A DNA stretch of 59,764 bases, the filler included. It is 6 parts of 6 records of this genome, joined end to end, with 100 filler letters (N's around TTAATTAATTAA, not from the genome) between each part and the next. Parts side by side here need not be neighbours in the genome. Positions count along the whole stretch, not along the records: positions 1 to 21,061 come from DRR723986_14452; 5 more parts are not named here. One strand, 5' to 3'. The notes beneath the pieces are model-generated. The model searched no databases and was not told the DNA's origin. It was given only the letters and a program-made list of their open reading frames with translations. Shown piece by piece: positions 4,088 through 51,221 of this stretch (position 1 is its first letter; every line of letters begins with the position of its first letter). The position numbers were made by a program, and so were the translations under genes.

Positions 4088-4837
4088 GCTTGCATTTATG
4101 TTAGTCGGTGTTCCCAAAGTCTGCAGCATTTACGTCCGCCTCACATCCCAATCCACGGTTCGGAGCATCATTCTGCAGGCTCCGGGCTCAAATTCTGTGT
4201 GACTCACCTGCGGGCTCCGAGCCGCTAGGCGCAAGACTCACAGTCTCAATTCTCTCAGTCTCTCAGTTTTTGATGCGGGCGTCAAGTCTTGGGGCCTGGG
4301 GATATCTTCAAGACTTTCGGAGCGATTGTTATCCGATTTCTGATCAATTTCGCGCTTAAAGACAGCAGGGTCGAGCCCTAAGGGCTCGACCCGCGTGTAA
4401 AATAATTGAGACTTGAGATTTTGTCCTCTAAATCCAAACCCAGAGACACCCAGACTTGATTGCTGACCGCTGATACTTTTTGCCTGGGAATTGTCAGAAT
4501 TCAAATAATTTGGAAAAACGCAGCGAGTATTACCTGCCACCAGCCGCGAGACACACAGCCGCCGATGCAGCCGCAAAACCCCAGAAACCCAAGACTCCTG
4601 GACATAAGGCGGGACAAACAAGAAACTCAAAAAAGACCAGCCGCAAGCGTGCCAACCGGCATAGCGCCGGCGCAGGCGGTCAAGAATCCAGGTAATATTC
4701 CTGCAGGCTGGAGACACGGCGTAACAATTGTGGACGAACTGCATTCCTTGCTCAAGCACAAATGTTGAACGAATGCGCGCCTGGACTCGGCCAGAGTGGA
4801 ACGAGATAGTCGCGATTCATCAACAAGGAACAAGACA

Positions 4838-6643
4838 ATGCGGCGAAACACAACAACGATCTTCATAGCGCTGCTCATAGCACAAACGGGCAGCAGCCTG
4901 ACGCTGCAGGCACAGGACAAGATGGCAATTCTCTACACGAGCCAGGGACAGGCACAAAGCCAGGCCGGCGCGGTAGACCACGACAACAACTACATTAACG
5001 GCGCAACGTTTAACACTGACCTTGTGGTAGAAGCGGACGACAAAATCCGCTTTAACACCGCAGGTGAAGCGACACAGCTGCTGTTAACAAAATACAATCA
5101 AAACGGCAAACTGCTCTGGGCTACAACGGCTGGTGGAGTTAACACCAACGAAGTTGTGCAGAATATCTCTTACGACATGTTTAACAACATTTACCTGAGT
5201 GGATATTTTGGCAATACACAACAGCCTGGCCCACAGAGCGCCAATTTCAGTTCAAACGGCGCAGATGCCGACGGCGATGGAGTCATTTCCACACAAGGCC
5301 ACGAAGATGCTTTCATTGCCAAGTACGATGCCGACGGTAATTACCAATGGGCACTGGCATTGGGCAACACAGGCGCAAATACGGCCGAACGCGCCTACGA
5401 TATCGTGACCGACGATTTTGGCTACAGCATTGTAGTTGGTGCCTTCCACGGGCAAATGAATTTTAACCCACGCGGCGCGGCGGTTGTAGACGGACTTAAC
5501 AACAACTCGGCCGGACTGTTCGTAGCGCGCTACGACGCCAACGGCATTCTCGACTGGCACTTCGTGATTGACGCACAAAATACAAATGTTGCCAAAGATG
5601 CGTACATCAGCTGCGATATAGATGACGACTTCAGTCTCTACCTGGCAGGTAACTTCCGCGGCCAGAATGTTAACATCAACCCACGTGGAGAAGCCGTCCC
5701 TATGACAAGTAATGGCGCTGGAGATATTTTCCTGGGGCGTTACAACATGGACAGCGGCAAGATGCACTGGGGACTGAGCATCGGCAGTTCGGAAGAAGAC
5801 ATGGTGGCTCCTGGAGCGCTGCGCTGCGACAATGAGGGCAATCCGTACTTCACGGGCCAACTTAGTGGCAATACGGCGGTTAACTTTGACGCGACCGGCG
5901 AACTTGAATTGGTTGAAAACTCAGCGCTCTACCTGGTAGGTTACAACAACAATGGCACACTGCGCGCACTGGCGGACATGCAGAGCGGCACGGGCGACGG
6001 CGGCCGGCGGGTTAACTTTGACAGCCAAAACAATGTCTACATTTCCGGTTACATGAATGCCAATGTGAAGTTTGGCGATCTTGGGCGTGCGGCTCACTCT
6101 CCGACGACGGACAGTTTCCTGGCCAAATACAGCAACAATCTGCAGACGTGCCACTGGGCGATTAACTTTGGCGGCGACTACGCGCAGGCGAACAATGCCG
6201 CAGCAGGGCTGGTTGTGGACCGCGAAGACAATCCGATTATCTCCGGCCAGCTGTTTGGCATTGGCGCCGACATCGACCCCAGCGCAGCGGTTTACAACGT
6301 TTCCAGCCAGGCGGGCCAGGACGCCTATGTCATCAAATACACGAGCGACGGTCAGCTGTGGGGTGCAAGGGCAACATCGGTTGACAACAGTGAAATGGGT
6401 GCTGCGAACTTAAACTCCGGCGTAACTGTTTATCCGAACCCGGCCGACAAAGAAATCCAAATCAATTCCGGTGGCATTGCAGCGCGTGCAGTTTTGATGG
6501 ATACACGTGGCAACAAAGTTGTTGAACACACATTGGAATCCGGGAATCTTGACGTCTCGACGCTGGCCTCGGGAACCTATCTGTTAAAAGTCTATGACTA
6601 CTACGATCAGCTGGTAGACAATGAATTGATCGTTGTCCGTTGA
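4838..6643 (+). CDS. T9SS type A sorting domain protein with SBBP-like beta-propeller repeats
   Basis: Signal peptide; repeated FIAKYDADGxxxW and NIYLSGYF motifs; C-terminal VYPNPA...LASGTYLL; ATG 4838 preferred over GTG 4796. Confidence 0.85.
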   Translation: MRRNTTTIFIALLIAQTGSSLTLQAQDKMAILYTSQGQAQSQAGAVDHDNNYINGATFNTDLVVEADDKIRFNTAGEATQLLLTKYNQNGKLLWATTAGGVNTNEVVQNISYDMFNNIYLSGYFGNTQQPGPQSANFSSNGADADGDGVISTQGHEDAFIAKYDADGNYQWALALGNTGANTAERAYDIVTDDFGYSIVVGAFHGQMNFNPRGAAVVDGLNNNSAGLFVARYDANGILDWHFVIDAQNTNVAKDAYISCDIDDDFSLYLAGNFRGQNVNINPRGEAVPMTSNGAGDIFLGRYNMDSGKMHWGLSIGSSEEDMVAPGALRCDNEGNPYFTGQLSGNTAVNFDATGELELVENSALYLVGYNNNGTLRALADMQSGTGDGGRRVNFDSQNNVYISGYMNANVKFGDLGRAAHSPTTDSFLAKYSNNLQTCHWAINFGGDYAQANNAAAGLVVDREDNPIISGQLFGIGADIDPSAAVYNVSSQAGQDAYVIKYTSDGQLWGARATSVDNSEMGAANLNSGVTVYPNPADKEIQINSGGIAARAVLMDTRGNKVVEHTLESGNLDVSTLASGTYLLKVYDYYDQLVDNELIVVR

Positions 6644-7951: not shown

Positions 7952-9817
7952 CTACACGGCCTGGCGTTTGACAGGTGAATGTTTGCGGGACTGTTCAAAC
8001 ATTTGAAGAACCTTAAAGAGTCGCTCATGGCTGCGTACTTGCAGTTTCTTGCGAATATTCCGGCGATTGACTTCAACTGTGCGCACGGAGAGGCACAACA
8101 AGTCACCAATCTGTTTGCTGGTGCAGCCGAATTTAACAAGCAGACAAGTCCGCAATTCCGTCGTGGTCAGATTCGGGCATTGACGCGATAGCAGGGTGAC
8201 AAAACCATCGCTCAGGTCATTGAGTTTGTTTTCCCAATTGGAGAAGTCACTTTCCTGCTGAATCTGGGAATGAACATCCATAATCAGATTGCACAGATGT
8301 TTAATCCGGACGCTGTCGCCATCAATTAAACGGGCAATACGGCTTTCAATCTCCTGCACCAAACCGGCCAGTTTACGCTGTTGTTGAGCCAGACTATGTA
8401 GTTCGCGTTTTTTGCGGCGCACGGTGGACTGCATGGCTTCGTGTTGCATGGCTTCTTTTTGTTGCATCCGGCGGCGGCGTGCTACTGAGAGGCGTGCATC
8501 CAGCTGCGCCAGCAACTGCAGCTTCTCCTCGTTCAGTCCCTTCTCAAAGAGGTCCAGGTACTGCAGATACTCTTGTAGTGCGAATTCATGGTTGCCGGTC
8601 TGCTCGTAAATCTCGGACCGCAAATTGTAGAATCCGGCTTCTAAACCAATGTCTCCCAGCTGCGAGGCCAGCTCTATTCCACGTTCCGTGCTGGACAGAG
8701 CGGAGCGGAAACATTTTACAGCCAGCAGCACTTTGGCCAGAAAGTAGTCACTACTGGCACATATGTGATAGTGTTTAACACTGTTTGCCAGGTCGTAGGC
8801 TTTACGCAGAAAATACTGAGCGCCGAAGTAGTCACCCAGTTTGATTTTGGCATTGGCAATTCCGAACCAACACTCACTTAACCAGCGCTCACTGCCTTTG
8901 CCATGGAAGGCAATCACCGCCTGATAAAACTGTTTTAATCCAAGTTCAGCCGCACCAGTCTGGGTGTTTAACATCGCCAGGCTTCTGAGCGCTTCGGATG
9001 CCCGCCCGTAGAGATGATGTTTAAGTGCCAGTAAGTGCGCCTTTTGAAAGTGAACACGTGAAGTCGCATATTCCTCAATGTCCTTATACAATTCTCCCAG
9101 CACAATCAGATTCTTGGCTTCGTTGTTAACATCTTGTAACAGCACTGCCAGGTCGAGCGCCTTATGTGCATGCAGCAGACAGCATTCAAAATCCCACAGC
9201 ACAAAAGCACTGGCTGCTATGAAGTTGTGGAATCGCAAACGCAGAAAGTTGTACCTGGGAGCCTGATATTCAGGTAGATGCCGCCTGCAAAACTCAAGCG
9301 CCGTTTGAAAGTCCCCCAGCTGATAATACGTATCCGCCATTTCAAGGATGGCCTGTCCACGACAAAACATCGTCCCGGAGACGGCAGTAGATTGCATAAC
9401 ACACAGCAGTAACTGGCGCGCTTCAAGATATTGTCGATTTTCTATCAATGAATATGCTTCGCGGATTACAGCGTGGATCTGCTCTGCCTGCGCATCGGCT
9501 TTGCGACGCGACACAGCATTCTTCGGGAGAACAATCTGTACTCCCAGACGGCCACATTCGGCTGACGTCACATCCTGGGCGCGGACCGCAGCAAACATTT
9601 CAGGACTGATCTCATCGGCTATTGTTGACCTGCTAACAAGTGAATCTGACAAAGTGTGTACTCCTTCCTGTCGATCCTCCATATCTTCGGGGATGACAGT
9701 TTGTGCGTGTGGAGACCGGGCTTGTAGGGCCAGACAATCTAAGCGGGTTTCGCTGGAAGTCAATTCAAAAATTAAGCCCATAAGGAGATTGCACCTGATT
9801 TCGCCTCTTAAAGTCAC
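7952..9817 (-). CDS. TPR-repeat protein with C-terminal LuxR-type HTH regulator
   Basis: Multiple TPR-like helices, coiled coil, then PNLTTTELRTCLLVKFGCTSKQIGDLLCLSVRTVEVNRRNIRKKL; true start may be downstream. Confidence 0.85.
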   Translation of the reverse strand: MTLRGEIRCNLLMGLIFELTSSETRLDCLALQARSPHAQTVIPEDMEDRQEGVHTLSDSLVSRSTIADEISPEMFAAVRAQDVTSAECGRLGVQIVLPKNAVSRRKADAQAEQIHAVIREAYSLIENRQYLEARQLLLCVMQSTAVSGTMFCRGQAILEMADTYYQLGDFQTALEFCRRHLPEYQAPRYNFLRLRFHNFIAASAFVLWDFECCLLHAHKALDLAVLLQDVNNEAKNLIVLGELYKDIEEYATSRVHFQKAHLLALKHHLYGRASEALRSLAMLNTQTGAAELGLKQFYQAVIAFHGKGSERWLSECWFGIANAKIKLGDYFGAQYFLRKAYDLANSVKHYHICASSDYFLAKVLLAVKCFRSALSSTERGIELASQLGDIGLEAGFYNLRSEIYEQTGNHEFALQEYLQYLDLFEKGLNEEKLQLLAQLDARLSVARRRRMQQKEAMQHEAMQSTVRRKKRELHSLAQQQRKLAGLVQEIESRIARLIDGDSVRIKHLCNLIMDVHSQIQQESDFSNWENKLNDLSDGFVTLLSRQCPNLTTTELRTCLLVKFGCTSKQIGDLLCLSVRTVEVNRRNIRKKLQVRSHERLFKVLQMFEQSRKHSPVKRQAV

Positions 9818-9946: not shown

Positions 9947-12900
9947 TCATGGCGTCAGAACCAGCGATTGGTGCACAACACCTTCTGCGCTGACCAGGCG
10001 GCAGATATAGTGCCCGGCAGCCAGTTGACCGGCTTCAAAGTCGAGCGAATGAGTGCCCGGAGTGACGTACTGATTCAGGAGCAGTGCCACTGAGCGGCCC
10101 TGTAAGTCTCGAATCTCAAGTCGTACCTTCCCAGCTATCGGAATGTGGTAAGTGATACGCGTTTGCTCAGCAACAGGATTGGGTTCAATCATCAACTGGA
10201 CGGCGGATTTTTGATTTTCCGGAGTTAATGTCTGCGTCGGAAGTCCGGGATGGCCGTCTTTGGCTGCGGCCTGCTCCTGGCAGATGTAGTAGGTCCCTGC
10301 TCCACTCTCTTTTACTACGGTGATAGCCGTTTGTTCTTCGGCCTCAAAACGAAGCGGGGTGTAATTACTGGCTTTCAGATTCGGGATTTCCGTCTCCGTA
10401 GTAATGTCTTCGTCATCACAAACGCTGCCGTCGCAGCGGGTTTTAACATCCCAAAGGTTGCCTTTGATGGTATGCGGATCAAAACTACATGTGCTGCCAA
10501 CGAAGTAGTACCCACCATCATCTACCAGCGCGACGGACTCAAAGTGATCTTCCTCGCCCTCGGTACCCGGTCCGCCGGTCGGTACATCCGGTGCAGCGTT
10601 GGACCACTCCAGGCGGCCACAATCGTCGATTTTAAGCATGTAACCTTGTTTGCCCTCCGTCGCTGTTTCTGTCCAGCCACCGATAACGTAACCGCCATTG
10701 GACGCACCGGGTGTTGCTTTGATGGACATAGCCCGGTCGTCAGAGCTGCCGGTCACTGTGTAACGCCGCGACCATTGCAGGTCACCGTCGGACTGCAGTT
10801 TAACAACCAGGGCTTCGTTGCCGCTGCCGCGATTTTGATATCCGCTCAGAATGTAGGAACCATCACCATTCTGTTGGATGCTGTATGCACGCTCGTCATC
10901 GGAAGTTCCGATTCGTTTACCCCAGTCGAGGCTCCCGTCGCTGTCGAGTTTAAGCACACAAATTTCTTCGCCACCATTGCCGCCGCCGGTGGTATAGCCG
11001 GCTACGATATAGCCGCCGTCCTGCGTCTGCTGTACAGACTGTGCGTAGTCATCGTAACTGCTGCCGTATATATACCCCCAACGCGTAGCTGAGCTGGGAG
11101 TGATATCGCCCGCATTGTCAGTTTTAACCACATAAAAATTGTAGCCGCCAGGGAAACCTGGGTCGCTGTCAAATGCACTTTTGCTATAACCGGCCAGAAC
11201 ATAACCGCCGTCCGATGTTAAACCCAATGAACGCCCATGATCGTGACTTACGTTGTCGTTCGTTAACAGGCCGTAGCTGCGCCCCCACAGAACTCCACCG
11301 GCATTATCAACTTTAACAAGCATCATGTTAAATTCACTGGTGACAGACGAACCAAAACTGTGATCGACGTCTCCGGCAAAGGCGTACCCCGCCGTTCCCC
11401 CAATTAAGGCCTGCACTGAATAACCATAGGTATACATGTCCACAGGTTTATAGTGATAGCCCCAGTGGAAAGCATTCGAGCCCATATTGTCGGTCTTGAT
11501 TAACATCGCCAGACTGCCGGTCTGCCCTTTAAGATCAAAACCTGTAATAATAAATCCACCGTCACTGGTCTGCATGCCTTCCTGACCGCGCTCACGCTCA
11601 AAGCGCGCACGCGTAACCTGAAAGGTCGGTTGTGTGGAAGGATCACATTCCGGGGATTCACAAAATTCACTGTCTTCGGTGTTAATCGGCAGCGGACTCA
11701 GTACGTGGTTGGCTTGCATCAGGTGGTCCTGCTCCGTCAATAACACCCCGGAAACCGTCTTGGGGTTAATTTCTTCAAAGGGAACATCCAGCCCACACTT
11801 TCCGCAGTCAACTGCACCGCTGACTAAAAACATATCGTTGTCACCGGGACCAAAACTGGACGTCATTCCGGCGGCCGCCCACGAATTGTGGTTGTCAAAC
11901 AGGCGTGCGGAATACGCCCATTCGCCCTGACCGCCGCCGTAGAGTTGCCCCCACATCAGGCTGCCATTGGCGTCAATTCGCAGAACACTCAAGTCAAAAT
12001 TCGATAGCTGTGCCGAAGCACCGCCCAGCAGATAACCACCGGAGTTTAACTCGCGAATTGAAAAACCCCAATCTGTAGAGTTCGCGCCCACACGGCTGTA
12101 CAGGCGTGACCAGGTGCCACTGCCAAAGGTCTGGCCCCACTGATCAGTTTTGATCACATAAATTCTGCTGCCGCTGGGGCGTGTGCTGATTCCAGCAATT
12201 ATCAGGCCTCCGTCAGAAGTCTCACGGACGTCGTACCCCATATCATCTGTCGCCCCCGGATCAGGTAAAATCCGACTCCAGCTGTACTGCCCGTTGGCAT
12301 CAAACTTTGCCAAAAACGTTCGGAAATTGGAAGCTCCCGGTACCGTGCACGGATTTTCATTTGCGCCAAACAGAAAAGACGTTTTACGGTGCCCGACCGT
12401 AATAAAACCACCGTCGCTGGTCTGGTGAACTGAATTCCCCAGAGTATTGCGAAAATGCGGCATTAAGAACTGATATCCCGGCGGATAGTCATTTGTGGAG
12501 GCCCAGGAAAGCAAGTTGCCCGTGGCATCTATGCGCAGCAGAAATAGATCGCTGCGGTGGTAGGATACAACACTTGGCACCTGCGGAAAATAATCACACA
12601 CAACGGTATCACCATTGGCATAACCAGTAATCGCAAAACTGCCGTCAGCACAGGTTCGAACCGAATATCCTTCATCATCGTAACGCCGCCCGTCATTAAA
12701 CCACGGGCCCTGATAAAAATTCATCCAGACCGTGCCGCCATTCAGATCAAGTCGCATCACCATGATATCCAGGTCGCCCTGGCCAAGTTGGCTAATAAAA
12801 CCGGTAACAATATAACCATCGTGATTTCCCTGAGCATCATAAGTCAGGTCCACATCGCGAAAGCCGGAAGAGTCGTCCGCCGGCGTAACGCGAAAGAACT

Positions 12901-13189
12901 GCCGTGACCAAACTTCCGCTCCAAACTGATCGGTTTTAACAAGATATGGCACGGCCCACCCAAAAGACGTTAAGTCCGTAGTTCCGGCCAAAATGAACCC
13001 ACCGTCCGGGGTCGGTTCCATGCCGTAGGCATAATCGTTAACCATTGGCGTGGCGTTACTGTAGGTGTGCACCATCTGTGCCGTTACAGGTGCATGTGTT
13101 AACATTCCCATTGCAAGGACCAGCATTACTAGAACTTGCAGATATCTTAAGCGCAGTGTATCCGGTATGGATTTTGAAAGTTGTAGCAT
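9947..13189 (-). CDS. Large T9SS cargo protein with two beta-propeller modules
   Basis: Many QTxDGGYI/LxAG and VKTDxxGxxxW repeats; C-terminal EPNPVAEQTRITY...LAAGHYICRL; ATG 13189 follows GGAG. Confidence 0.85.
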   Translation of the reverse strand: MLQLSKSIPDTLRLRYLQVLVMLVLAMGMLTHAPVTAQMVHTYSNATPMVNDYAYGMEPTPDGGFILAGTTDLTSFGWAVPYLVKTDQFGAEVWSRQFFRVTPADDSSGFRDVDLTYDAQGNHDGYIVTGFISQLGQGDLDIMVMRLDLNGGTVWMNFYQGPWFNDGRRYDDEGYSVRTCADGSFAITGYANGDTVVCDYFPQVPSVVSYHRSDLFLLRIDATGNLLSWASTNDYPPGYQFLMPHFRNTLGNSVHQTSDGGFITVGHRKTSFLFGANENPCTVPGASNFRTFLAKFDANGQYSWSRILPDPGATDDMGYDVRETSDGGLIIAGISTRPSGSRIYVIKTDQWGQTFGSGTWSRLYSRVGANSTDWGFSIRELNSGGYLLGGASAQLSNFDLSVLRIDANGSLMWGQLYGGGQGEWAYSARLFDNHNSWAAAGMTSSFGPGDNDMFLVSGAVDCGKCGLDVPFEEINPKTVSGVLLTEQDHLMQANHVLSPLPINTEDSEFCESPECDPSTQPTFQVTRARFERERGQEGMQTSDGGFIITGFDLKGQTGSLAMLIKTDNMGSNAFHWGYHYKPVDMYTYGYSVQALIGGTAGYAFAGDVDHSFGSSVTSEFNMMLVKVDNAGGVLWGRSYGLLTNDNVSHDHGRSLGLTSDGGYVLAGYSKSAFDSDPGFPGGYNFYVVKTDNAGDITPSSATRWGYIYGSSYDDYAQSVQQTQDGGYIVAGYTTGGGNGGEEICVLKLDSDGSLDWGKRIGTSDDERAYSIQQNGDGSYILSGYQNRGSGNEALVVKLQSDGDLQWSRRYTVTGSSDDRAMSIKATPGASNGGYVIGGWTETATEGKQGYMLKIDDCGRLEWSNAAPDVPTGGPGTEGEEDHFESVALVDDGGYYFVGSTCSFDPHTIKGNLWDVKTRCDGSVCDDEDITTETEIPNLKASNYTPLRFEAEEQTAITVVKESGAGTYYICQEQAAAKDGHPGLPTQTLTPENQKSAVQLMIEPNPVAEQTRITYHIPIAGKVRLEIRDLQGRSVALLLNQYVTPGTHSLDFEAGQLAAGHYICRLVSAEGVVHQSLVLTP

Positions 13190-13228
13190 TTCTTCTCCCA
13201 AATTAAACATCAATAATGGTCCGGTATT

Positions 13229-13585: not shown

Positions 13586-14263
13586 TCAGGGTTGAGTTTG
13601 GTAGAACTGGAGATGCGAAACTACAACGCCCTTTGCCGGCGCCTTATGCAGTTCGAATTTGCGCCGAATAGCACAACAATGTTGTTCAATTGTTCGCGGT
13701 GAAAGCGACAGGATTGTGGCAATCGTCTTTTTGTCGTGTCCCTGAATTTGTAAAACTCGAACCCGCAGCTCACTAAGAGAAAGCTGGGCCTCCACTTCGT
13801 GCGCCAAAACAGGATTTTGCGGCACATCCGACGGTAGCGGCAAGGCATAAAACATTTCTGAGAAATTGTGCAGACGGTGGCTGCGGATTTCCTGTAACAA
13901 CTTACTCAGAAGTCCGGCGCGGTTTCTTTTGTGTTTAAGAATTGCCCTTAAGCGCTCAACAACATGTTTTAGAAACTCATTTTCAAACAAATGTGACAAG
14001 GCGCCATTAATATGCTGCCTGTAAACAAGTTCAAACTCGCGGCGCATTTCTACACGCAGGTGTTCGGACAGTTCACGTTCCAACAGCCGCCCTTCTTCTC
14101 TCATTTTTGCCTGGTAACTCTTCAACAAGTGGCGGTAGTTGTGAGCGTGAATTTGCGCACGAACCCGATTGGCCTGTTTAAGTTTTTCAAGTGCTGCAGC
14201 TGGATCCCCCTGCTCTGCCAAGCGCCTCGCAGCGTCTTTTAACTCTTGAAAGTGATTCTCCAC
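13586..14263 (-). CDS. LuxR-type HTH protein (coiled coil + HTH)
   Basis: LSLSELRVRVLQIQGHDKKTIATILSLSPRTIEQHCCAIRRKF. Confidence 0.75.
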   Translation of the reverse strand: MENHFQELKDAARRLAEQGDPAAALEKLKQANRVRAQIHAHNYRHLLKSYQAKMREEGRLLERELSEHLRVEMRREFELVYRQHINGALSHLFENEFLKHVVERLRAILKHKRNRAGLLSKLLQEIRSHRLHNFSEMFYALPLPSDVPQNPVLAHEVEAQLSLSELRVRVLQIQGHDKKTIATILSLSPRTIEQHCCAIRRKFELHKAPAKGVVVSHLQFYQTQP

Positions 14264-14676: not shown

Positions 14677-17121
14677 TCAGTGCACCACCGTAAAGTTAAC
14701 CGTACGCGTTTGTTTGCCGGACTGTGCCCGCAAAATATACGCGCCGGCCGGCCATAAACTTGTATCGTGACGCCGCTCAATTACATCAGTTCCATTGGCG
14801 ACGAGCTGTTCATCAAGGAACTTTTTGCCAAAGCTATTGGTAGCTGTTAAGTGCGTAGTCTGTTGACTGCTGCTGGGCTGAAGGCGCACGGTGATAAATT
14901 CATCGGCTGGATTGGGAGCCAGCTGCAGCGCCAGTAAAGTCCGGAAAACGATGCCGTAGTTAAGGCAGTAGGCGGCATTGCTGTACGTGCCACTTTTGTA
15001 GCGCGCAGTCGGCAGGCAGCCGCGGGCATCATCGGCCTGGTTAAACTCACGAAGTTCGATCTGGCTCTGTGCTTGCGGCGCCATAAATGCGAGGAATTCG
15101 AGTTCGGTCACCTGCTGCGGGCTTTCTGTTACAGTTAATCCTTCAATTTCGATTTCTGTTAGACGCCGGCCATTAACATTTGAGGACTGAATGATTTCAC
15201 CGCCGGCGAGTTCAACAAGTCCAAGCAGGTCACGTGAATATTCAACTGTTAAACGGAATGCTGCAATTTCGAGCGGCAGCTCGGCGCCGGAAACTGCAAC
15301 TATGAGCGGCACAATTGCACTGCCATTCTCGTTTGCAAGACTAGCCGGCAGACTGAATTGCAAGTCAATATTTCCTAACTGTGTGACATCAACCTTAAAT
15401 TCAGCCTGTGCCGGACAGGCGTCACCGGCAGTGCGCACCTGTATTTGAGTATCGTCCAATGGAGAGATGCGCTGGCGCAGAGCGGTGGGATCATCGAATA
15501 ATTCGGCGGGTTCCCAGTTAACATTTTCGGCACCTTCTACCCAGACTTCCAGTTCGTCACCGGCACAGATTGTCGTATCGGCATTAACGCGCAGGACGGC
15601 GGGCTCAAGGACTTTAATGTCAAACTCACGTGTGACCGCACATGAATTTCTCTCGGCTGTGAGGCGCACAAGGGTGGATTCAAGCAGGCTGATATTTTGC
15701 TCAGCAAGCGTGTTATCGTTAAACAGTTCGGCAGGCTCCCACAGATACGTTGCGGCACCCGTAGCGCTGAGGCGCACCGTTTCCCCGGCGCAGATTTCCC
15801 TTGCGGAGATCGTAGTTTCAAATGCAAAACCGGCGGCAGTCCCGTCACCAAAAATATAGTCCATAAAATTTGGCAGGCCGAAGCTTGTGCGCGGATTAAA
15901 GAAACTGCCGAAAGATAGAATTCTGCGTTCGATATTAACGTCCGCACCAAAGGAGTTGGGATTAACAATTCGTGAGAGACGCGGACGCAACTGGGCAGTA
16001 ATGAGGAGATACATGGCGCCGTCCGGAGCAAGCTGTAATGCACCAATTGCATCACCCGATATTGGCTCGTCATGATCAAAGCGGCTGCGATTAATTGCGT
16101 CCAGGTTAAAGGTGCTGAGATCAAACTGTATTAAACCGGATTCGGTGCCATAGGCATACAGACTGGAGTTGTTGGCCGCAAATGAGGCAGAGTAGAATCC
16201 TTGTGCATTGTTTGAACGACTGACGGAAATATCGGGACTTAAAGGCTCACTGATTTCGCGCGTGGCCGGATCAAACTCAAATATCATCAACGAACTGCGG
16301 GCATCATTGTATTCGGCTTCAACGATGCGCTGTCCGTCCGGCGAGAATTTCAATTGCCCCTGGCGATGTGTGACACCGCGATTTCCAAAGGAAGAAACTT
16401 CCGGATCTTCACTTACGATCCCATCAACACCGAGGCGCCAGAGATATAGTCGGCTTGTAGCGCCCAGCGCAGATGAAACGATCACAAATTCATCGGCGCA
16501 GGCATTGTACGTTCCGGTGACTTTCTCGGCCAGGCTAATATCGGGACGCAGAACACGCTGCTCAATGACGTCGCCCAGGCCACCGCGTGCGCTAAGTGAC
16601 ACGACCTGGTAGGACATGCTGCTGTAGGCCAGCGTATGGAACTGTGAGAGGTTCTCGCTCAGGAATGAAGATACGTTGCCGGGATTAAAGATATAGTAGA
16701 TGCCGGACCGTCCGGGCTGCGGAACTATCAGGGCCGACTGACTTGTGGAATACGAAGGCTTTATGGTGCTAGTGACGACGTTCACGGCACTGCCGGGCAT
16801 GAGATTGTTCTGACGGTCCCAGACCTGCATGCCATCGGTGTAAAACAGGAGTGCGCCGCTTTGCGGGTCACTATAGGCGGCACCACCTTCCAGAGTTTGC
16901 ATGCTGCTGGTCCCGGCGCGGTTCAGTGCGCCATTGCCAAAATTCAGGACAAATTCATCGCCAAAATACCAGTTTTCGGCTTCGCGGGACTGCGAGTTCA
17001 GCATGTCGGGACAGCAGAGACCAATCAGCAAAGCTATGGTCAGAAAGCGGCAGCAAAGCTGCTGCAGCGGCTTGTTATCTATATTCAGTTGGCGCTTGGA
17101 GATGTATTGGGCACGATACAT
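14677..17121 (-). CDS. T9SS cargo protein (N-terminal beta-propeller, Ig-like repeats, cohesin-like region, CTD)
   Basis: NWYFG, LLFYTDG, KFSPDG, LQLAPDG, GLPNF motifs; ICAGE/YLWEP Ig-like repeats; APNPA...PAGAYIL C-terminus. Confidence 0.85.
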   Translation of the reverse strand: MYRAQYISKRQLNIDNKPLQQLCCRFLTIALLIGLCCPDMLNSQSREAENWYFGDEFVLNFGNGALNRAGTSSMQTLEGGAAYSDPQSGALLFYTDGMQVWDRQNNLMPGSAVNVVTSTIKPSYSTSQSALIVPQPGRSGIYYIFNPGNVSSFLSENLSQFHTLAYSSMSYQVVSLSARGGLGDVIEQRVLRPDISLAEKVTGTYNACADEFVIVSSALGATSRLYLWRLGVDGIVSEDPEVSSFGNRGVTHRQGQLKFSPDGQRIVEAEYNDARSSLMIFEFDPATREISEPLSPDISVSRSNNAQGFYSASFAANNSSLYAYGTESGLIQFDLSTFNLDAINRSRFDHDEPISGDAIGALQLAPDGAMYLLITAQLRPRLSRIVNPNSFGADVNIERRILSFGSFFNPRTSFGLPNFMDYIFGDGTAAGFAFETTISAREICAGETVRLSATGAATYLWEPAELFNDNTLAEQNISLLESTLVRLTAERNSCAVTREFDIKVLEPAVLRVNADTTICAGDELEVWVEGAENVNWEPAELFDDPTALRQRISPLDDTQIQVRTAGDACPAQAEFKVDVTQLGNIDLQFSLPASLANENGSAIVPLIVAVSGAELPLEIAAFRLTVEYSRDLLGLVELAGGEIIQSSNVNGRRLTEIEIEGLTVTESPQQVTELEFLAFMAPQAQSQIELREFNQADDARGCLPTARYKSGTYSNAAYCLNYGIVFRTLLALQLAPNPADEFITVRLQPSSSQQTTHLTATNSFGKKFLDEQLVANGTDVIERRHDTSLWPAGAYILRAQSGKQTRTVNFTVVH

Positions 17122-17431
17122 TTCTGGGCTCCTGTGCTTTGTTTTTTGCTTTTTTTGGGGGGGGGCAAGTTCACACGTCTGGGAATAGCGGGCTATTCAT
17201 CAGCGGCGCACGCTATGAGGGATAACATTCAAGCATGCGTCGGGAGTTGATTGGATTGATTGACAGAGCAACAACTGCAATCAGTAAACGATACCAATTA
17301 TTTTTGACGAGTATTTTCAGGTGATTTGGCAAAACAACACTTTTGCGGCTTACTTCACGACCGATAACAAATTTTGTTAATTCACACGATTAATTTTGGA
17401 TTACTGCAATTTTTGTCTATTATCAGAACAA

Positions 17432-17875
17432 GGAATCCGGATTCCAACAAACCATATTCTACTAACTCAAAGACCAGGACCTATTCCGTGAGGAATTCTC
17501 GTTTACATAGGTATGTCATTGAGTTTGGAGGAGACAGACGATAACGACACAGATATCGTTGCGCTTCATCTGTTACGGCGAGCATTAACCAAATCCGTGT
17601 AGCCCGCGGTCTCACTGCCCTTACTTCCGCACGCCGGCTCTCTTCCTTCCTCTTAAAAGAAAACATATACCACACCAGGTTGATTTATCTGGTGGAAGAA
17701 TCGTACGTGCCATAGACACGAAGCTGCAGCGGATGTTAAGTTAACATCGGCACTATGCTCTACGTGTTTCAACATGCCGGCGTGCACGGACTTCCACACC
17801 ATTCGAGTGAAACAAAATACGAAGCTGATGTAAGCGGGTGTTCTTAGGTCTACAGGACCTGGGAGGACACATGCT
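17432..17875 (+). promoter_or_regulatory. Long hairpin-rich non-coding leader or candidate structured RNA
   Basis: Perfect 14-bp palindrome 17432-17445 and several stems; the last stem (17838-17870) contains the GGAGG upstream of ATG 17876. Confidence 0.45.
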
Positions 17876-18613
17876 ATGAAGAAGTTTCTATTACCCCTGG
17901 CATTTGTTGCGTTTATAGGCTTTAGCGCCTGTAGCGACGAATCCAATGATCCCGGCAATTTGTTAAGTGACCCCGGAGATGTAAGCAGTGAGTCATCCGC
18001 TTATGTACTGGTTGGGCCACGCCTACTTGGCGAAGAAGTAGGCCAGTTGCGCTGGATTGAGGGCAATCTTGAGGCGCCAAACGGCAGTAATGTCAAGGGT
18101 ACGGGCGACAAAGTTCAGCGCGATGTTGAATTCCATGAGATCATCCCGGAATATTCCAAGTACTCGTACATGTGCCACGACGGCCGTGAAACGAGCTACT
18201 CGGAACCCGGCTCCGATGAAAAGTGGTGGCACATAGCCGGTGGTGCATGGGCTTCCTACTATTCAACAAACCCGAACGGCTGCCCAGACGGCGGCGAGCC
18301 TTTCCACGAGTTCATTGGACCGAAGCCGACGTCGATGCACGACATGTGGCACATCCCCAGTGGCAGAATGGCTTCGTATTACTACGACCCAATGGAAGGC
18401 TCTGTTTGGTGCCACGACCCAAGTGGCGAATACCCGTCTTCATATGTTCCAATGGATGCTATTCACATAACCGACCCGACAATCACAACTGTTACAGTTG
18501 ATGGTACAGACATTGATATTGACGAGACTACCCCGACCTCATACGTATGGGGTGGCAAGCCGATTGACCCTGAGCTGCTGCCGAAAGACTTCCTTGACGG
18601 AGTCAGCAATTAA
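17876..18613 (+). CDS. Lipoprotein with repeated H-x(5-9)-S-Y motifs (unknown function)
   Basis: MKK + hydrophobic stretch + FSAC lipobox; GGAGG SD; 8 His confined to aa 87-197 and six SY dipeptides. Confidence 0.8.
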   Translation: MKKFLLPLAFVAFIGFSACSDESNDPGNLLSDPGDVSSESSAYVLVGPRLLGEEVGQLRWIEGNLEAPNGSNVKGTGDKVQRDVEFHEIIPEYSKYSYMCHDGRETSYSEPGSDEKWWHIAGGAWASYYSTNPNGCPDGGEPFHEFIGPKPTSMHDMWHIPSGRMASYYYDPMEGSVWCHDPSGEYPSSYVPMDAIHITDPTITTVTVDGTDIDIDETTPTSYVWGGKPIDPELLPKDFLDGVSN

Positions 18614-18665
18614 GTCACTCTGCGGAGTGTGAGCAGCTGTTAAACTACGAGCACTATCGCTTCAA

Positions 18666-18698
18666 ACTGCCGGGAAACGCGCAGGCGTTCCCGGCGGT
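18666..18698 (+). terminator. GC-rich hairpin after lipoprotein gene (no U-tract)
   Basis: ACTGCCGGGAAACGC-GCAG-GCGTTCCCGGCGGT. Confidence 0.5.
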
Positions 18699-18796
18699 GT
18701 GTCTGGCCAACGTTAGCGTCCAACAGTAGCATTAAACAAAATTTCAACAGGCTCCAGCATTAACGCCAAGGCCGTTATGCCAAAAGGGTATTCACT

Positions 18797-19894
18797 ATGG
18801 CAGTCCTAGAAAAGTTATTCCCCTACGCCAGTCTGGTGTTTTTAATAGCCGCAGCAGGTGCGGTTTTTGTGACGATTCAGTCCGAAAGTAAACCACATCC
18901 GGAGATAAACGCGGGGCTGATTACCAATCACTCGTTTATTAACGGTTTATATACAAGCATGGACATTTATGATGAGGAGGAAGTTTTTGCGTATATCTTC
19001 AGAAACCTGGATGACGAAGTCACAATTTTCCCTTCGGAAAATTACTTCTACTTTCGATTCAGTGCGCAGGGCCAGACGCTGGGCGGCTCACTTTCCTTAA
19101 AAGTAGGCAAACGCGATGAGGGCATCATCAGCCTGGGCTATTCGATTAAACCGGAGTCACGCGATCGCCAAAAGTTCTTCAGTATCAAAGGTGGTGCGCG
19201 TGACTTTAATGCCGATGACGGCGTCCTGGTTAAAAAACTCGACGACTTTTTGTATGGCGTCACCTACAAAGACCGGACGGTGACGTTCAGCTTGTATGAG
19301 CAGGGCCTGCAAGCGCCGCAGAAGGCCGCACTCATGCCGGATGAGGAATATGTGTGTACTTCGTTTGATGAATCGGGACTGCAGTTTTATCTGATATTTA
19401 ACAAAAGTATCGATCGCATGTACTGGATTCTGAATGAAGATGCGTATGTGCCGGAAGAGTTCACACGCCACAGCCACAACGTCTTTTTTGGCGACCGCAC
19501 GGAATTTGCCTGGTATGCAGATTCAGTGCACAACCGCAAAGTTCTGATTGGCGTCAATGGCGAGAATGTGCTGCACAACAACTGGTACGATGGCCCCTTT
19601 GATCAATTGGCCGATAATTATGTCAATATCGGAGAGTTAAACATGCGGCCCTATATTGAGGCGCAGTATCCGATGCACCTTGACAATGTTGATGAATTCG
19701 GGCGCATGTTAAACCGCGAAGACGCGCGCGTACCGATTGCACCCTACCGCGTCTACTGGGATACACGCGAGTTTAACAATATCGACAGCCTGGTAGGCGC
19801 TGTGGAAGATAAGTCACAGCTTCTGCAGCAGCTAACCGCGCAGATTTACTATGTGCCGCGTGACTATTACAAAAATGTGCTTAGAAAAAAGTAG
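18797..19894 (+). CDS. Membrane-anchored hypothetical protein, paralog A
   Basis: N-terminal hydrophobic anchor; motifs FPSENYFYFRF, FDESGL, NNWYDGPFDQLADNY shared with next gene. Confidence 0.85.
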   Translation: MAVLEKLFPYASLVFLIAAAGAVFVTIQSESKPHPEINAGLITNHSFINGLYTSMDIYDEEEVFAYIFRNLDDEVTIFPSENYFYFRFSAQGQTLGGSLSLKVGKRDEGIISLGYSIKPESRDRQKFFSIKGGARDFNADDGVLVKKLDDFLYGVTYKDRTVTFSLYEQGLQAPQKAALMPDEEYVCTSFDESGLQFYLIFNKSIDRMYWILNEDAYVPEEFTRHSHNVFFGDRTEFAWYADSVHNRKVLIGVNGENVLHNNWYDGPFDQLADNYVNIGELNMRPYIEAQYPMHLDNVDEFGRMLNREDARVPIAPYRVYWDTREFNNIDSLVGAVEDKSQLLQQLTAQIYYVPRDYYKNVLRKK

Positions 19895-19906
19895 ACTGGA
19901 ATCCAG

Positions 19907-20968
19907 ATGTTACGCACAATTGTGGACCGGGTTTTGGTGTTTACGGCGGGAGCGATGGTGACTTTGTTGCTGGCGTATTCGCTGGACGAGAGCGCCGCGC
20001 GCGAAAACAGTTTACGCAGCGGCGTCTTTTCGAATGAGGCCTATGTTAACGGTTTATACACGAACATGAACCTGGTCAGCAGCCAGGATGTGTTTACACA
20101 TGTGTTCAACAACCTGGCGCCGGCAGTTACCGTTTACCCATCTGAGAACTTCTATTACTTTCGATTCACCGGGCGCGGACGCACGGTGAGTGGCGCGTTG
20201 TGGCTGGGAATAGAGAAGGTTGACAGCGGGAAAATTGGATGTAGTTTTACACGCAAAGCTGAACAGCGCGACCGTTATGCCACTGCGGAGCGCATTCCCC
20301 TGTCCCGCGACTTTGGCGCTGCCGAGGGCGTGGAAGTCAAACGCCTGGATGACTTTAACATTCGCGTTAAATACAGAAACAAGACGGTAGACTTTGAGTT
20401 GTACCGCGCGCCCGTGCGTGCCGGGCTAAGTTATGCTTTGCGCGCAGACGAGGTGTTTGTAGGCCCGTGTTTTGACGAATCGGGGCTGCGCTTTGACCTG
20501 CTTTTTAACAAAAGTGCGGCGCGGCTGTTCTGGGTTCTGAATGAGGATCACTACGTGCCGGAGCAGTTTACGCAGCTCAGCGAGAACGTCAGCGTGGGAG
20601 AGCGCAGTGAATTTGCCTTTTTTCACGACCGTGAACAAAGGCGCAAAATTCTGATTGGCGTGCACGCGCTGAACGTAGCCGACAACAACTGGTTTGACGG
20701 ACCTTTTGACCAGATGCCGGACAACTACGTGCGCGCCGGTGTTGCTGAGATACGTTCGTATTTGGCGCTGCATCACAATGTTGATGCGTCTGGGCTGGAT
20801 GAGTATGGCTTTTACGGAGCGGACAAACGCACACGTTTAAGTGCGACGGCGTACAGGCGTTACAGCGAACGCGCGGACCTGACATTTGCGGATTCTTTGC
20901 TGGAGCAGCATTCCGGCAACTACGCGCAGCTGCTGGAGGCTTTGACGCTGAGTGAGCGGCTGGAGTGA
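19907..20968 (+). CDS. Membrane-anchored hypothetical protein, paralog B
   Basis: 12 nt after paralog A; YPSENFYYFRF, FDESGL, NNWFDGPFDQMPDNY. Confidence 0.85.
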   Translation: MLRTIVDRVLVFTAGAMVTLLLAYSLDESAARENSLRSGVFSNEAYVNGLYTNMNLVSSQDVFTHVFNNLAPAVTVYPSENFYYFRFTGRGRTVSGALWLGIEKVDSGKIGCSFTRKAEQRDRYATAERIPLSRDFGAAEGVEVKRLDDFNIRVKYRNKTVDFELYRAPVRAGLSYALRADEVFVGPCFDESGLRFDLLFNKSAARLFWVLNEDHYVPEQFTQLSENVSVGERSEFAFFHDREQRRKILIGVHALNVADNNWFDGPFDQMPDNYVRAGVAEIRSYLALHHNVDASGLDEYGFYGADKRTRLSATAYRRYSERADLTFADSLLEQHSGNYAQLLEALTLSERLE

Positions 20969-21061
20969 TGCTGCCCACACCTCAATGCGATCTGGGATTG
21001 GCGTCTGGCTGATGAAGATTATTCTGCCGCTACCGAGTCCTGAGACTCTGAGCCGGAAGAT

Positions 21062-21161
21062 NNNNNNNNNNNNNNNNNNNNNNNNNNNNNNNNNNNNNNN
21101 NNNNNTTAATTAATTAANNNNNNNNNNNNNNNNNNNNNNNNNNNNNNNNNNNNNNNNNNNN
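21062..21161. other. Artificial contig spacer
   Basis: N-run + TTAATTAATTAA + N-run, 100 nt. Confidence 0.98.
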
Positions 21162-30388: not shown

Positions 30389-30488
30389 NNNNNNNNNNNN
30401 NNNNNNNNNNNNNNNNNNNNNNNNNNNNNNNNTTAATTAATTAANNNNNNNNNNNNNNNNNNNNNNNNNNNNNNNNNNNNNNNNNNNN
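30389..30488. other. Artificial contig spacer
   Basis: N-run + TTAATTAATTAA + N-run. Confidence 0.98.
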
Positions 30489-39589: not shown

Positions 39590-39689
39590 NNNNNNNNNNN
39601 NNNNNNNNNNNNNNNNNNNNNNNNNNNNNNNNNTTAATTAATTAANNNNNNNNNNNNNNNNNNNNNNNNNNNNNNNNNNNNNNNNNNNN
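39590..39689. other. Artificial contig spacer
   Basis: N-run + TTAATTAATTAA + N-run. Confidence 0.98.
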
Positions 39690-45127: not shown

Positions 45128-45227
45128 NNNNNNNNNNNNNNNNNNNNNNNNNNNNNNNNNNNNNNNNNNNNTTAATTAATTAANNNNNNNNNNNNNNNNN
45201 NNNNNNNNNNNNNNNNNNNNNNNNNNN
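45128..45227. other. Artificial contig spacer
   Basis: N-run + TTAATTAATTAA + N-run. Confidence 0.98.
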
Positions 45228-51121: not shown

Positions 51122-51221
51122 NNNNNNNNNNNNNNNNNNNNNNNNNNNNNNNNNNNNNNNNNNNNTTAATTAATTAANNNNNNNNNNNNNNNNNNNNNNN
51201 NNNNNNNNNNNNNNNNNNNNN
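51122..51221. other. Artificial contig spacer
   Basis: N-run + TTAATTAATTAA + N-run. Confidence 0.98.

Follow-up and report, generated by a model that had tools for sequence, protein, structure and literature searches.

The window (the whole stretch of DNA analysed, 59,764 nt) consists of six contigs separated by N linkers, and the contig carrying the locus terminates at 21061, 93 nt past the end of its last gene, so that a partner gene further downstream would lie out of view. The locus includes a gene for a repeat-bearing lipoprotein (the array protein) and two paralogous genes, pA and pB, whose products are members of a family designated here as family A. The features are as follows:

17122..17875, + strand: divergent intergenic region and leader of the lipoprotein gene, with no + strand ORF of at least 60 aa and a conserved block at about 17410-17655
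17876..18613, + strand: ORF of the array protein, a 245-aa lipoprotein with lipobox Cys19 and seven His-anchored class I units
18666..18698, + strand: G+C hairpin in the interval between the array gene and pA, predicted in the MFE fold as well as in the centroid fold
18797..19894, + strand: family-A paralog pA, 365 aa, with an N-terminal membrane helix followed by a predicted extracytoplasmic, two-lobed, beta-rich domain
19907..20968, + strand: family-A paralog pB, 353 aa, in tandem with pA
21062..21161, no strand: artificial N linker with TTAATTAATTAA spacer, which closes the contig carrying the locus

The GC content was 50.2% ahead of this linker vs. 62.2% beyond it. Each part of the three-gene layout given in the original prediction was found in place, including the paralog pair 12 nt apart (41% identity, E 3e-91). 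Export or anchor signals were read by eye on all three products, and pA and pB each have a single N-terminal hydrophobic helix.

The signal peptide of the lipoprotein ends in ...AFIGFSAC, and Cys19 was invariant in 14 of 14 relatives; read by eye, the sequence thus has the signal peptide and the lipobox with an invariant Cys that define a bacterial lipoprotein. Acidic residues directly follow the lipid Cys. The seven units start at H87, H101, H119, H144, H159, H180 and H197, of which the first six have an invariant His and the seventh, H197, a nearly invariant one (alignment of 14 sequences, most of them 28-36% identical). Four units have the form H-x3-G-x3-[ST]-(x)-Y, and the others are H-x4-T-x-Y, H-x3-P-x2-S-x-Y and H-x7-S-x-Y, one each, so that the earlier description of a tandem array of H-x(5-9)-S-Y units was a fair one. 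The array as a whole is of class I, H-x3-G-x3-[ST]-x-aromatic. Because a profile search found only 11 proteins in all, the lipoprotein belongs to a small clade-specific family. Its AF2 model is weak (pLDDT 50.6), with beta-hairpins predicted across the units.

The intergenic region upstream of the lipoprotein gene is divergent and 754 nt long. The stretch 17430-17878 folds with a z of -2.77, and none of 100 shuffles was as stable. About 250 nt of the leader are 77% identical to the two closest relatives, L001 and L002, and to no others, and an Rfam search gave no match at E <= 1. Of the long structured leader proposed earlier, the length and a fold more stable than shuffles therefore stood, but neither a known RNA family nor conservation beyond L001 and L002 was found. 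A sigma-70-type promoter scan, by a model that excludes Bacteroidota-type promoters, found none on the + strand before the lipoprotein gene. A small leader ORF (ATG at 17513) was dismissed since its frame is broken in L001. The hairpin at 18666-18698 was confirmed as a GC hairpin without a U-tract: it has a G+C stem of 10-11 bp with no T-run 3' of it, the stem being invariant and the loop divergent relative to L001 and L002, and a terminator scan did not call it.

Searches with pA returned 575 matches, and a further set contained 680 representatives. Family A retains 34-50% identity over more than 10 phyla plus DPANN archaea, and its carriers include SAR202, Acidobacteriota, Alphaproteobacteria, Bacteroidota and CPR bacteria. 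The residues P79, E81, Y85, E183, D191, R247, D265-G-P and D269 (pA numbering) were invariant in 101 of 101 domains, and the universal core also takes in N261, D273 and R311. Among the same domains there was no invariant His, Cys or Lys, and Ser193 was retained in 97. pB conforms to alignment A1 at each of its 28 invariant columns. Since the pB-type copies form a separate starred clade of their own (8 rows, 95), the pA/pB duplication is old and both copies have been retained.

The AF2 model of pA has a pLDDT of 89.4 and a pTM of 0.82, and a fold search with it gave no match clearly above background. Neither pA nor pB matched any family in Pfam or NCBIfam; against PDB sequences, phmmer gave 0 matches and a profile search gave 3 chance-level matches (E >= 1). 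The ESM Atlas held no usable match for pA, and tblastn with pA against a plasmid collection found none. The possibility raised at the outset that the paralogs might match a characterised, unrelated family was thus not borne out by the sequence searches, nor by any clear fold match. The nearest likeness was to PF23875 (DUF7229), a 90-position model of a domain of unknown function, to which 6 of 35 family-A members gave weak matches (E <= 1) over residues ~197-245, the D-E-S-G strand region. However, the best of these scored 24.5 bits vs. a gathering threshold of 27, and pA and pB gave none, although a remote relation is possible; a literature word search on DUF7229 found no paper mentioning PF23875. 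A complex prediction of pA 40-365 with lipoprotein residues 82-212 gave a score of 0.00, with alignments unused and an uncertain partner fold, and counts neither for nor against a complex.

To assess the genomic context, ORFs rich in H-x4-[ST] or H-x7-[ST] units were scored as motif-rich, and those within 700 nt of a family-A gene as near. A same-strand motif-rich ORF was near the family-A gene, or overlapped it, in 51 of 78 loci. Motif-rich segments made up 56/477 (11.7%) of those near and on the same strand, vs. 3/497 near on the opposite strand, 16/2064 far on the same strand and 8/2127 far on the opposite strand; their share was at most 0.8% in the non-overlapping classes other than near same-strand. 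The automatic rule failed at 27 of the 78 loci. Shorter arrays were spotted by eye in L011, L013, L019, L024, L036, L038 and L039, and no array was seen despite ample flank at about 11 loci (L020, L025, L031, L044, L046, L056, L071, L074, L076, L077 and L078). Clustering artefacts were excluded, namely antisense ORFs (cluster c3) and a merger of arrays and family A that the fusion protein L022_3 had caused.

By the same motif rule, 10 of 12 long family-A proteins examined carry fused arrays, placed N-terminal to the domain in P0125 and P0198 and C-terminal to it in P0190, P0192, P0172, P0189, P0167, P0202, P0241 and P0257, while seven plain family-A proteins scored only 0-2. P0190 also has Cys-rich and fn3 modules. 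Homologs of the paralogs therefore recur beside, or within, exported His...Ser/Thr-repeat proteins, as had been expected if the association was real. The 77 putative operon neighbours taken from related loci include no recurrent third gene, and the pair of array and family A is therefore self-sufficient. The pair is followed by a T9SS-tailed subtilase of family S8 in the Kapaibacteria-like relatives L003-L006 and L016, i.e., in 5 of 78 loci, and this gene is absent from L001 and L002. The core idea of the original prediction, an extracytoplasmic system uniting a motif-array protein with the paralogs, is strongly supported by the neighbourhoods, the fusions and the lack of a characterised relative in our searches. 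Judging from these data, the array protein and family A are very probably a functional pair, with genetic support as strong as comparative genomics gives.

The array proteins elsewhere are Sec-secreted, membrane-anchored or giant, with Sec or lipoprotein signals. Their arrays span about 190-1,930 aa, the giants being 900-1,930 aa; for example, the 1,935-aa array ORF segment of L051 contains 246 His. Two classes of units can be distinguished, class I (H-x3-G-x3-[ST]) and class II (H-x4-[ST]), and in most array proteins Ser/Thr stands at +5 or +8 of at least 75% of all His. The positions outside His and Ser/Thr vary, charge included. Tyr, which the motif first proposed had included, proved not to be universal, only His and Ser/Thr being kept family-wide, which weakens any Tyr-specific chemistry. 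An ESM Atlas search with the Devosia array protein gave best scores of at most 0.78, to unnamed or CARDB/DUF11 clusters.

On the family-A tree, each unit class needs one change (SH-aLRT 99; 0 of 500 shuffles as low), and the unit spacings are split by the two halves of the tree, with Alphaproteobacteria-labelled rows in both. This clustering of classes by clade is no proof of co-evolution, since relatives share labels, the tree is a quick version and for 15 loci the class was assigned by eye. From sequence comparison, every array unit is under selection, and the strict His...Ser/Thr spacing amid otherwise free-running sequence points to a specific chemistry at the cell surface.

Based on the above results, we suggest that the genes of the window are a copy of a widespread two-component envelope module in which family A is an enzyme modifying each His...Ser/Thr unit, a reading to which we give an even chance. 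Catalysis by family A, its target residues and the geometry of the units are what we infer and propose. The first component would be the exported array protein, with short hypervariable units bearing His and Ser/Thr at a fixed spacing, and the second would be the membrane-anchored, extracytoplasmic family A, with its invariant carboxylates, two Arg and Tyr. Family A would work outside the cytoplasm without ATP, visiting each unit and acting on its His...Ser/Thr pair. The reaction may be an O-linked modification of Ser/Thr directed by the His, or a cross-link between His and Ser/Thr. In class I units, Gly at +4 would lie midway between His at 0 and Ser/Thr at +8, and in class II units a two-residue turn at +2/+3 may play the role of the Gly; with such turns, the side chains of His and Ser/Thr would stand opposite one another on a beta-hairpin. 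Because the lipoprotein model is of low confidence, this geometry is something we infer. The old paralogs pA and pB may possibly share the work on the window lipoprotein according to unit spacing.

Family A looks like an enzyme in that its sequences keep 34-50% identity across phyla together with invariant polar residues. The number of units per family-A gene, from 2 to >200, fits turnover better than 1:1 binding. Counting against an enzyme are the lack of an evident cofactor or donor and of an invariant His, Cys or Lys, and the ~11 array-less loci. The His/Ser/Tyr cross-linking or cofactor attachment originally put forward are guesses. More specifically, family A could be a new class of ATP-independent, extracytoplasmic modifying enzymes that has its own fold and makes one covalent change per His...Ser/Thr hairpin. 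The change could be a His-to-Ser/Thr-derived side-chain cross-link stapling every hairpin, or else an O-linked group donated by a membrane lipid. This we put forward tentatively, as possible but somewhat doubtful.

An enzyme fused covalently to its own substrate would be unusual, and here a structural or binding partnership fits at least as well. Under such a partnership, the array would be a metal- or ligand-binding polymer or an adhesive fibre, and family A would serve without catalysis as its anchor, assembly platform or receptor. The periodic His would bind the ligand, with Ser/Thr as a second shell. Fusions in both orders, giant arrays resembling fibres or sponges, and the Cys-rich and fn3 modules of P0190, typical of surface proteins, are all consistent with this. 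The acidic residues after the lipid Cys of the window lipoprotein also agree with it, as in Bacteroidota such residues favour surface exposure. So does the presence of family A in DPANN and CPR organisms, whose lifestyle is one of attachment to hosts. Nevertheless, the net charge of the arrays ranges from very acidic (SAR202) to very basic (the Arg-rich alphaproteobacterial arrays), which argues against one shared, electrostatically bound ligand, and metal sites do not usually consist of a His every 9-10 residues plus a strict Ser/Thr. An anchor needs a single contact, yet all units are conserved, and the invariant polar cluster and the 34-50% identity across domains of life exceed what most anchors display. 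A purely structural role is therefore unlikely overall.

It is still harder to see family A as a hydrolase or lyase of new fold, acting on peptidoglycan, exopolysaccharide or a host wall, with the arrays as targeting modules in the manner of the choline-binding repeats of LytA. Glycoside-active enzymes often have sets of carboxylate, aromatic and Arg residues, and the invariant set E81, Y85, E183, D191, D265, D269, R247 and R311 is of this kind; many arrays have an aromatic residue after Ser/Thr and hairpin-like periods of 17-20 aa, and a catalytic domain fused to binding repeats is a common architecture. But the aromatic is not universal, as the H-and-S-only classes in L051, L059 and L065-L070 demonstrate, and many arrays are Pro-rich 9-mers, improbable as binding solenoids. 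Furthermore, no carbohydrate-active or cell-wall gene recurs among the 77 putative operon neighbours, and searches of Pfam and PDB gave nothing CAZyme-like or CBM-like. Finally, a peptidase that cuts the array unit by unit, in the manner of a multi-core precursor being processed into many short peptides with His, would suit the multi-copy architecture, the carboxylate-rich core (compatible with an acid peptidase) and the subtilase of L003-L006 and L016, but is improbable, as no peptidase family or fold was matched, unit boundaries are unconserved, export and immunity genes are absent, a protease fused to the array would sever itself, and the subtilase occurs at only 5 of 78 loci and is missing from L001 and L002.

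For either component we could find no name, no model in Pfam or NCBIfam, no recognisable fold and no paper; literature word searches, conducted outside subscription journals, gave no description of family A or of the pair, only papers on the HXS system being relevant. The pairing of an exported His/Ser-repeat protein with a membrane partner of no recognisable fold is indicative of a cell-envelope system not described so far. As an enzyme, family A would bring both a new fold and a new way of modifying proteins after export; otherwise, the novelty would lie in the arrays, as an envelope polymer of a new type that has its own dedicated partner. Should the more specific proposal of a new enzyme class be true, a novel modified envelope polymer would be common to more than 10 bacterial phyla, CPR and DPANN. 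The system is directly testable in the cultured carriers Devosia sp. CN2-171 (L060) and Rhodobium orientis DSM 11290 (L066).

Several known systems resemble the pair in part. Collagen with prolyl 4-hydroxylase and the serine-rich-repeat adhesins with GtfA/B likewise have one enzyme acting on many identical short sequons of a long secreted repeat protein. These enzymes come from known superfamilies, depend on known co-substrates and modify their targets ahead of export, and they show no evident sequence or fold relation to family A. Flavinylation by ApbE modifies Ser/Thr in a short motif after export, through a membrane-associated enzyme encoded nearby. The array motif, in contrast, is distinct and many times repeated, and neither pA nor pB matched an ApbE-family enzyme in Pfam or NCBIfam.

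The RiPP analogy drawn at first proved a poor fit, given that the arrays, which bear Sec or lipoprotein signals and are often fused to their partner, are up to 1,930 aa long. In place of a short, leader-bearing cytoplasmic precursor, there are exported arrays of 190-1,930 aa and a partner domain that follows a membrane anchor or signal peptide, and no RiPP enzyme of a known class stands beside the array (no Pfam or NCBIfam family for pA and pB, no recurrent third gene). Among the signal-peptide-bearing RiPPs made by MNIO enzymes, the bufferins and the lipidated Chryseobacterium peptides are, in the part of that literature available to us, periplasmic or lipoprotein-anchored products, some of which bind copper; the same sources place the MNIO (DUF692) enzymes in the cytoplasm, acting on Cys, unlike family A. 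No MNIO enzyme or partner protein of one was found in the Pfam results for pA and pB or among the 77 neighbours.

The closest described analogue is the HXS antiphage system, with no component in common. According to the available portion of its description, HxsA, with its His-Xaa-Ser repeats, is matured by the radical-SAM proteins HxsB and HxsC plus HxsD (PMC13128918). Here too an exported envelope protein functions via short His- and Ser-containing repeats, and the maturation genes are adjacent (PMC13128918, same portion). No match to HxsA/B/C/D was found in NCBIfam (the lipoprotein and 15 array or fusion proteins) or PADLOC, and adjacent radical-SAM maturases were absent, pA and pB having no Pfam domain and Radical_SAM occurring in 1 of the 77 neighbours (L023). 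As far as that portion goes, HXS has five H-x-S units, of which one repeat is covalently changed (PMC13128918), whereas the present arrays have 2 to >200 H-x4/x7-[ST] units. Maturation in HXS is described there as cytoplasmic and radical-SAM-dependent (PMC13128918), while family A is extracytoplasmic, is not a radical-SAM protein and has no recognised fold. In the same text, 99.7% of HXS systems fall in Pseudomonadota (PMC13128918), in contrast to the present pair, which is spread over more than 10 phyla plus archaea.

The window is made up of six contigs separated by 100-nt N linkers (21062-21161, 30389-30488, 39590-39689, 45128-45227 and 51122-51221), each with a TTAATTAATTAA spacer. The GC content of the contigs, in order, is 50.2, 62.2, 62.2, 54.9, 62.2 and 51.5%, and because these values differ, more than one organism is the probable source of the pieces (a mixed bin or a metagenome). 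The first contig (1-21061, GC 50.2%) ends with the three-gene unit, and its several T9SS-sorted proteins point to a Bacteroidota-like (FCB) bacterium as the source. The following features were located on this contig:

7-945, integrase, at the contig start
2642-3952, phosphate-porin-like gene
4796-6643, + strand, large protein with a T9SS C-terminal sorting domain
7952-9817, LuxR/GerE regulator
9947-13213, - strand, large protein with a T9SS C-terminal sorting domain
13586-14263, LuxR/GerE regulator
14677-17121, - strand, large protein with a T9SS C-terminal sorting domain
17410-17655, leader block (about 250 nt) preceding the lipoprotein gene, with long stretches identical to the closest relative loci, L001 and L002
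17876-18613, + strand, lipoprotein gene (245 aa)
18666-18698, G+C hairpin without a T-run
18797-19894, + strand, pA (365 aa), first membrane-anchored paralog
19907-20968, + strand, pB (353 aa), second paralog, starting 12 nt after pA

Thus, the lipoprotein with its units, the hairpin lacking a T-run and the closely spaced paralogs of the original prediction were all found. pA and pB share 41% identity, and each begins with a single hydrophobic helix. The hairpin stem is kept in L001 and L002. The leader block, common to the window and these two loci only (three sequences in all), contains no conserved ORF and may be a cis-regulatory RNA or promoter region. The 754-nt region in front of the lipoprotein gene gave a somewhat more stable fold than its shuffles (z = -2.77), and the leader gave no Rfam match.

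In a word-indexed collection, pA matched 575 proteins, all of them "hypothetical" or unnamed and none with a Pfam domain. It also matched 680 cluster representatives (50% identity) and had relatives in 488 of 498 candidate stretches from one-genome-per-species contigs. The family containing both paralogs (family A) was followed in 78 kept loci, labelled as Bacteroidota, Kapaibacteriota, Ignavibacteriota, Sumerlaeota, Rhodothermales, Alpha- and Gammaproteobacteria, Acidobacteriota, Aquificota, Thermodesulfobacteriota, Chloroflexota (SAR202, Dehalococcoidia), Verrucomicrobiota, Planctomycetota, CPR bacteria, Woesearchaeota and Iainarchaeota, a range that rests on partly unreliable labels because some MAG titles are probably wrong. 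Two of the loci come from strains in culture, namely Devosia sp. CN2-171 and Rhodobium orientis DSM 11290. The genes of L002, L004, L005 and L018 group with Kapaibacteria and Bacteroidota, yet their titles say Hyphomicrobiales or Alphaproteobacteria, probably through errors in binning or labelling. The residues that do not vary in any of 101 domains are P79, E81, Y85, E183, D191, R247, D265-G-P and D269, with N261, D273 and R311 nearly invariant; no His, Cys or Lys is among them.

The array of short His-containing units proved to be the recurrent partner of this family. ORFs were called in the 78 loci, and each His with Ser/Thr at +5 or +8 was counted; an array required a density of 5 or more such starts per 100 aa, or the looser H...S-aromatic pattern of the original prediction at no fewer than 1.2 per 100 aa. 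The homolog-neighbourhood comparison put forward in the original prediction was positive: in 51 of 78 loci, a same-strand array ORF overlapped the family-A gene or lay within 700 nt of it. Among near ORF segments, 56/477 (11.7%) on the same strand and 3/497 (0.6%) on the opposite strand passed, while the far segments gave 16/2064 (0.8%) and 8/2127 (0.4%), respectively. Shorter adjoining arrays were judged by eye in seven more loci (L011, L013, L019, L024, L036, L038 and L039), and in L034, L024 and L028 the array is one gene away. No array was found in about 11 loci with ample flank, and another five loci were too short to judge.

The two parts are also fused. Ten of the 12 long family-A proteins fetched contained arrays (8-41 motif starts), located before the family-A domain in P0125 and P0198 and after it in P0190, P0192, P0172, P0189, P0167, P0202, P0241 and P0257. 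As for the other two, P0045 has eight or nine units by eye (+8/+9 spacing) and P0231 ends after one unit. Seven unfused members scored 0-2, and a further fusion was present in the genome set (L022).

The window lipoprotein contains seven units, in which positions +4, +8 and +10 are usually Gly, Ser/Thr and Tyr, respectively, and the opening His of each shows little or no variation among 14 relatives. Its own family is small (tblastn matches in 7 of 78 loci, 11 proteins by profile); the arrays elsewhere are not its homologs in the ordinary sense, and the unit is what recurs. When all His residues of each array protein were taken, not motif starts alone, two unit classes emerged. Class I, H-x3-G-x3-[ST], often followed by x-aromatic, occurs in the window, Bacteroidota, Ignavibacteriota, DPANN and a few Alphaproteobacteria. 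Class II, H-x4-[ST], differs in its flanks between groups: Trp/Phe and Pro come after it in Proteobacteria, Aquificota and Thermodesulfobacteriota, Ser comes before it in SAR202, and the motif stands alone in Verrucomicrobiota, Planctomycetota and the giant proteins of Alphaproteobacteria. In the 1,935-aa array ORF segment of L051, at least 75% of 246 His have Ser/Thr at +5. Of the predicted His/Ser/Tyr repeat, His with Ser or Thr is universal, but Tyr is not. Other features drift, with units of 7-20 residues and charge from poly-acidic to poly-Arg. In the giant proteins (L065:2271-5855, L067, L069, L070 and L066:989-5560), the H-x4-S array comes after an N-terminal region of some 400 aa that is conserved among them and has no Pfam match.

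Gly +4 would mark the midpoint between His 0 and Ser/Thr +8, and a two-residue turn at +2/+3 that between 0 and +5, so in both classes the His and Ser/Thr side chains would lie opposite one another on the two strands of a beta-hairpin. For the lipoprotein, a weak AF2 model (pLDDT 50.6) predicted hairpins over the units.

In a quick maximum-likelihood tree of 89 family-A domains, a branch with an SH-aLRT support of 99% divides the domains into two halves. With 15 class labels assigned by eye and 17 rows unlabelled, one change suffices for each unit class, a result equalled by 0 of 500 shuffles of the labels; the caveats are that relatives share labels and that MAG taxonomy may be wrong. Rows labelled Alphaproteobacteria occur in both halves, and archaea in the class I half. 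Copies of the pA type and of the pB type fall into two distinct old clades, and L001-L006 and L016 retain both types; 9 of 78 loci have a tandem pair.

When 77 neighbours on the same strand were scanned against Pfam, their functions were unrelated and no third component recurred. Only the Kapaibacteria-like clade has extra genes around the unit of lipoprotein and tandem family-A genes: upstream, a sigma factor of the ECF type (e.g., L004:3831-4427) and, downstream, a subtilase of family S8, about 1,500 aa long, that carries FG-GAP repeats and a T9SS-type tail (L003:8381-12988; same position in L004, L005, L006 and L016). The window contig stops before any such downstream gene could show. In SAR202/Dehalococcoidia, family A is followed by a second, different repeat protein (L057:2116-2760, L058:2041-2760, L068:1675-2412 and L073:1354-1923), Pro/Thr-rich with T-P-x-A-T-P-type units, a lipoprotein-like N-terminus and no Pfam family.

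Based on the above results, the array protein and family A are a self-contained extracytoplasmic module. We favour, with about even confidence, family A as a putative enzyme and the array as its substrate, because selection keeps every unit while one partner serves from 2 to >200 of them, the invariant polar cluster is conserved across domains of life, the kept residues pair a base with a nucleophile and are not of the kind that determines a fold, and unit spacing follows the family-A clade. Counting against this reading, the system has no known cofactor, donor or product, arrays are missing from some loci, and an enzyme fused to its own substrate is unusual. Among the rival readings, a non-catalytic anchor or ligand-binding polymer seems unlikely, and a new envelope hydrolase with targeting repeats somewhat more so. 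A processing peptidase is improbable.

A word search of the literature outside subscription journals found no description of family A or of His...Ser/Thr arrays, and the system is real, widespread and apparently undescribed. The pair lacks the defining features of RiPP, ApbE and MNIO systems. The nearest described system is the radical-SAM His-Xaa-Ser repeat antiphage system (HXS; PMC13128918), in which a periplasmic effector with five His-Xaa-Ser repeats undergoes cytoplasmic maturation by two radical-SAM enzymes, and which is reported to be nearly confined to Pseudomonadota. In this connection, it is of interest that in one Woesearchaeota contig family A is immediately preceded by a radical-SAM gene truncated at the contig end (L023:17-757), with the array gene downstream, the sole such case among the 77 scanned neighbours. 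The two systems would have in common the concept of a His/Ser repeat effector with dedicated maturation, but differ in protein families, location of the (here putative) maturase, unit spacing and taxonomic range.
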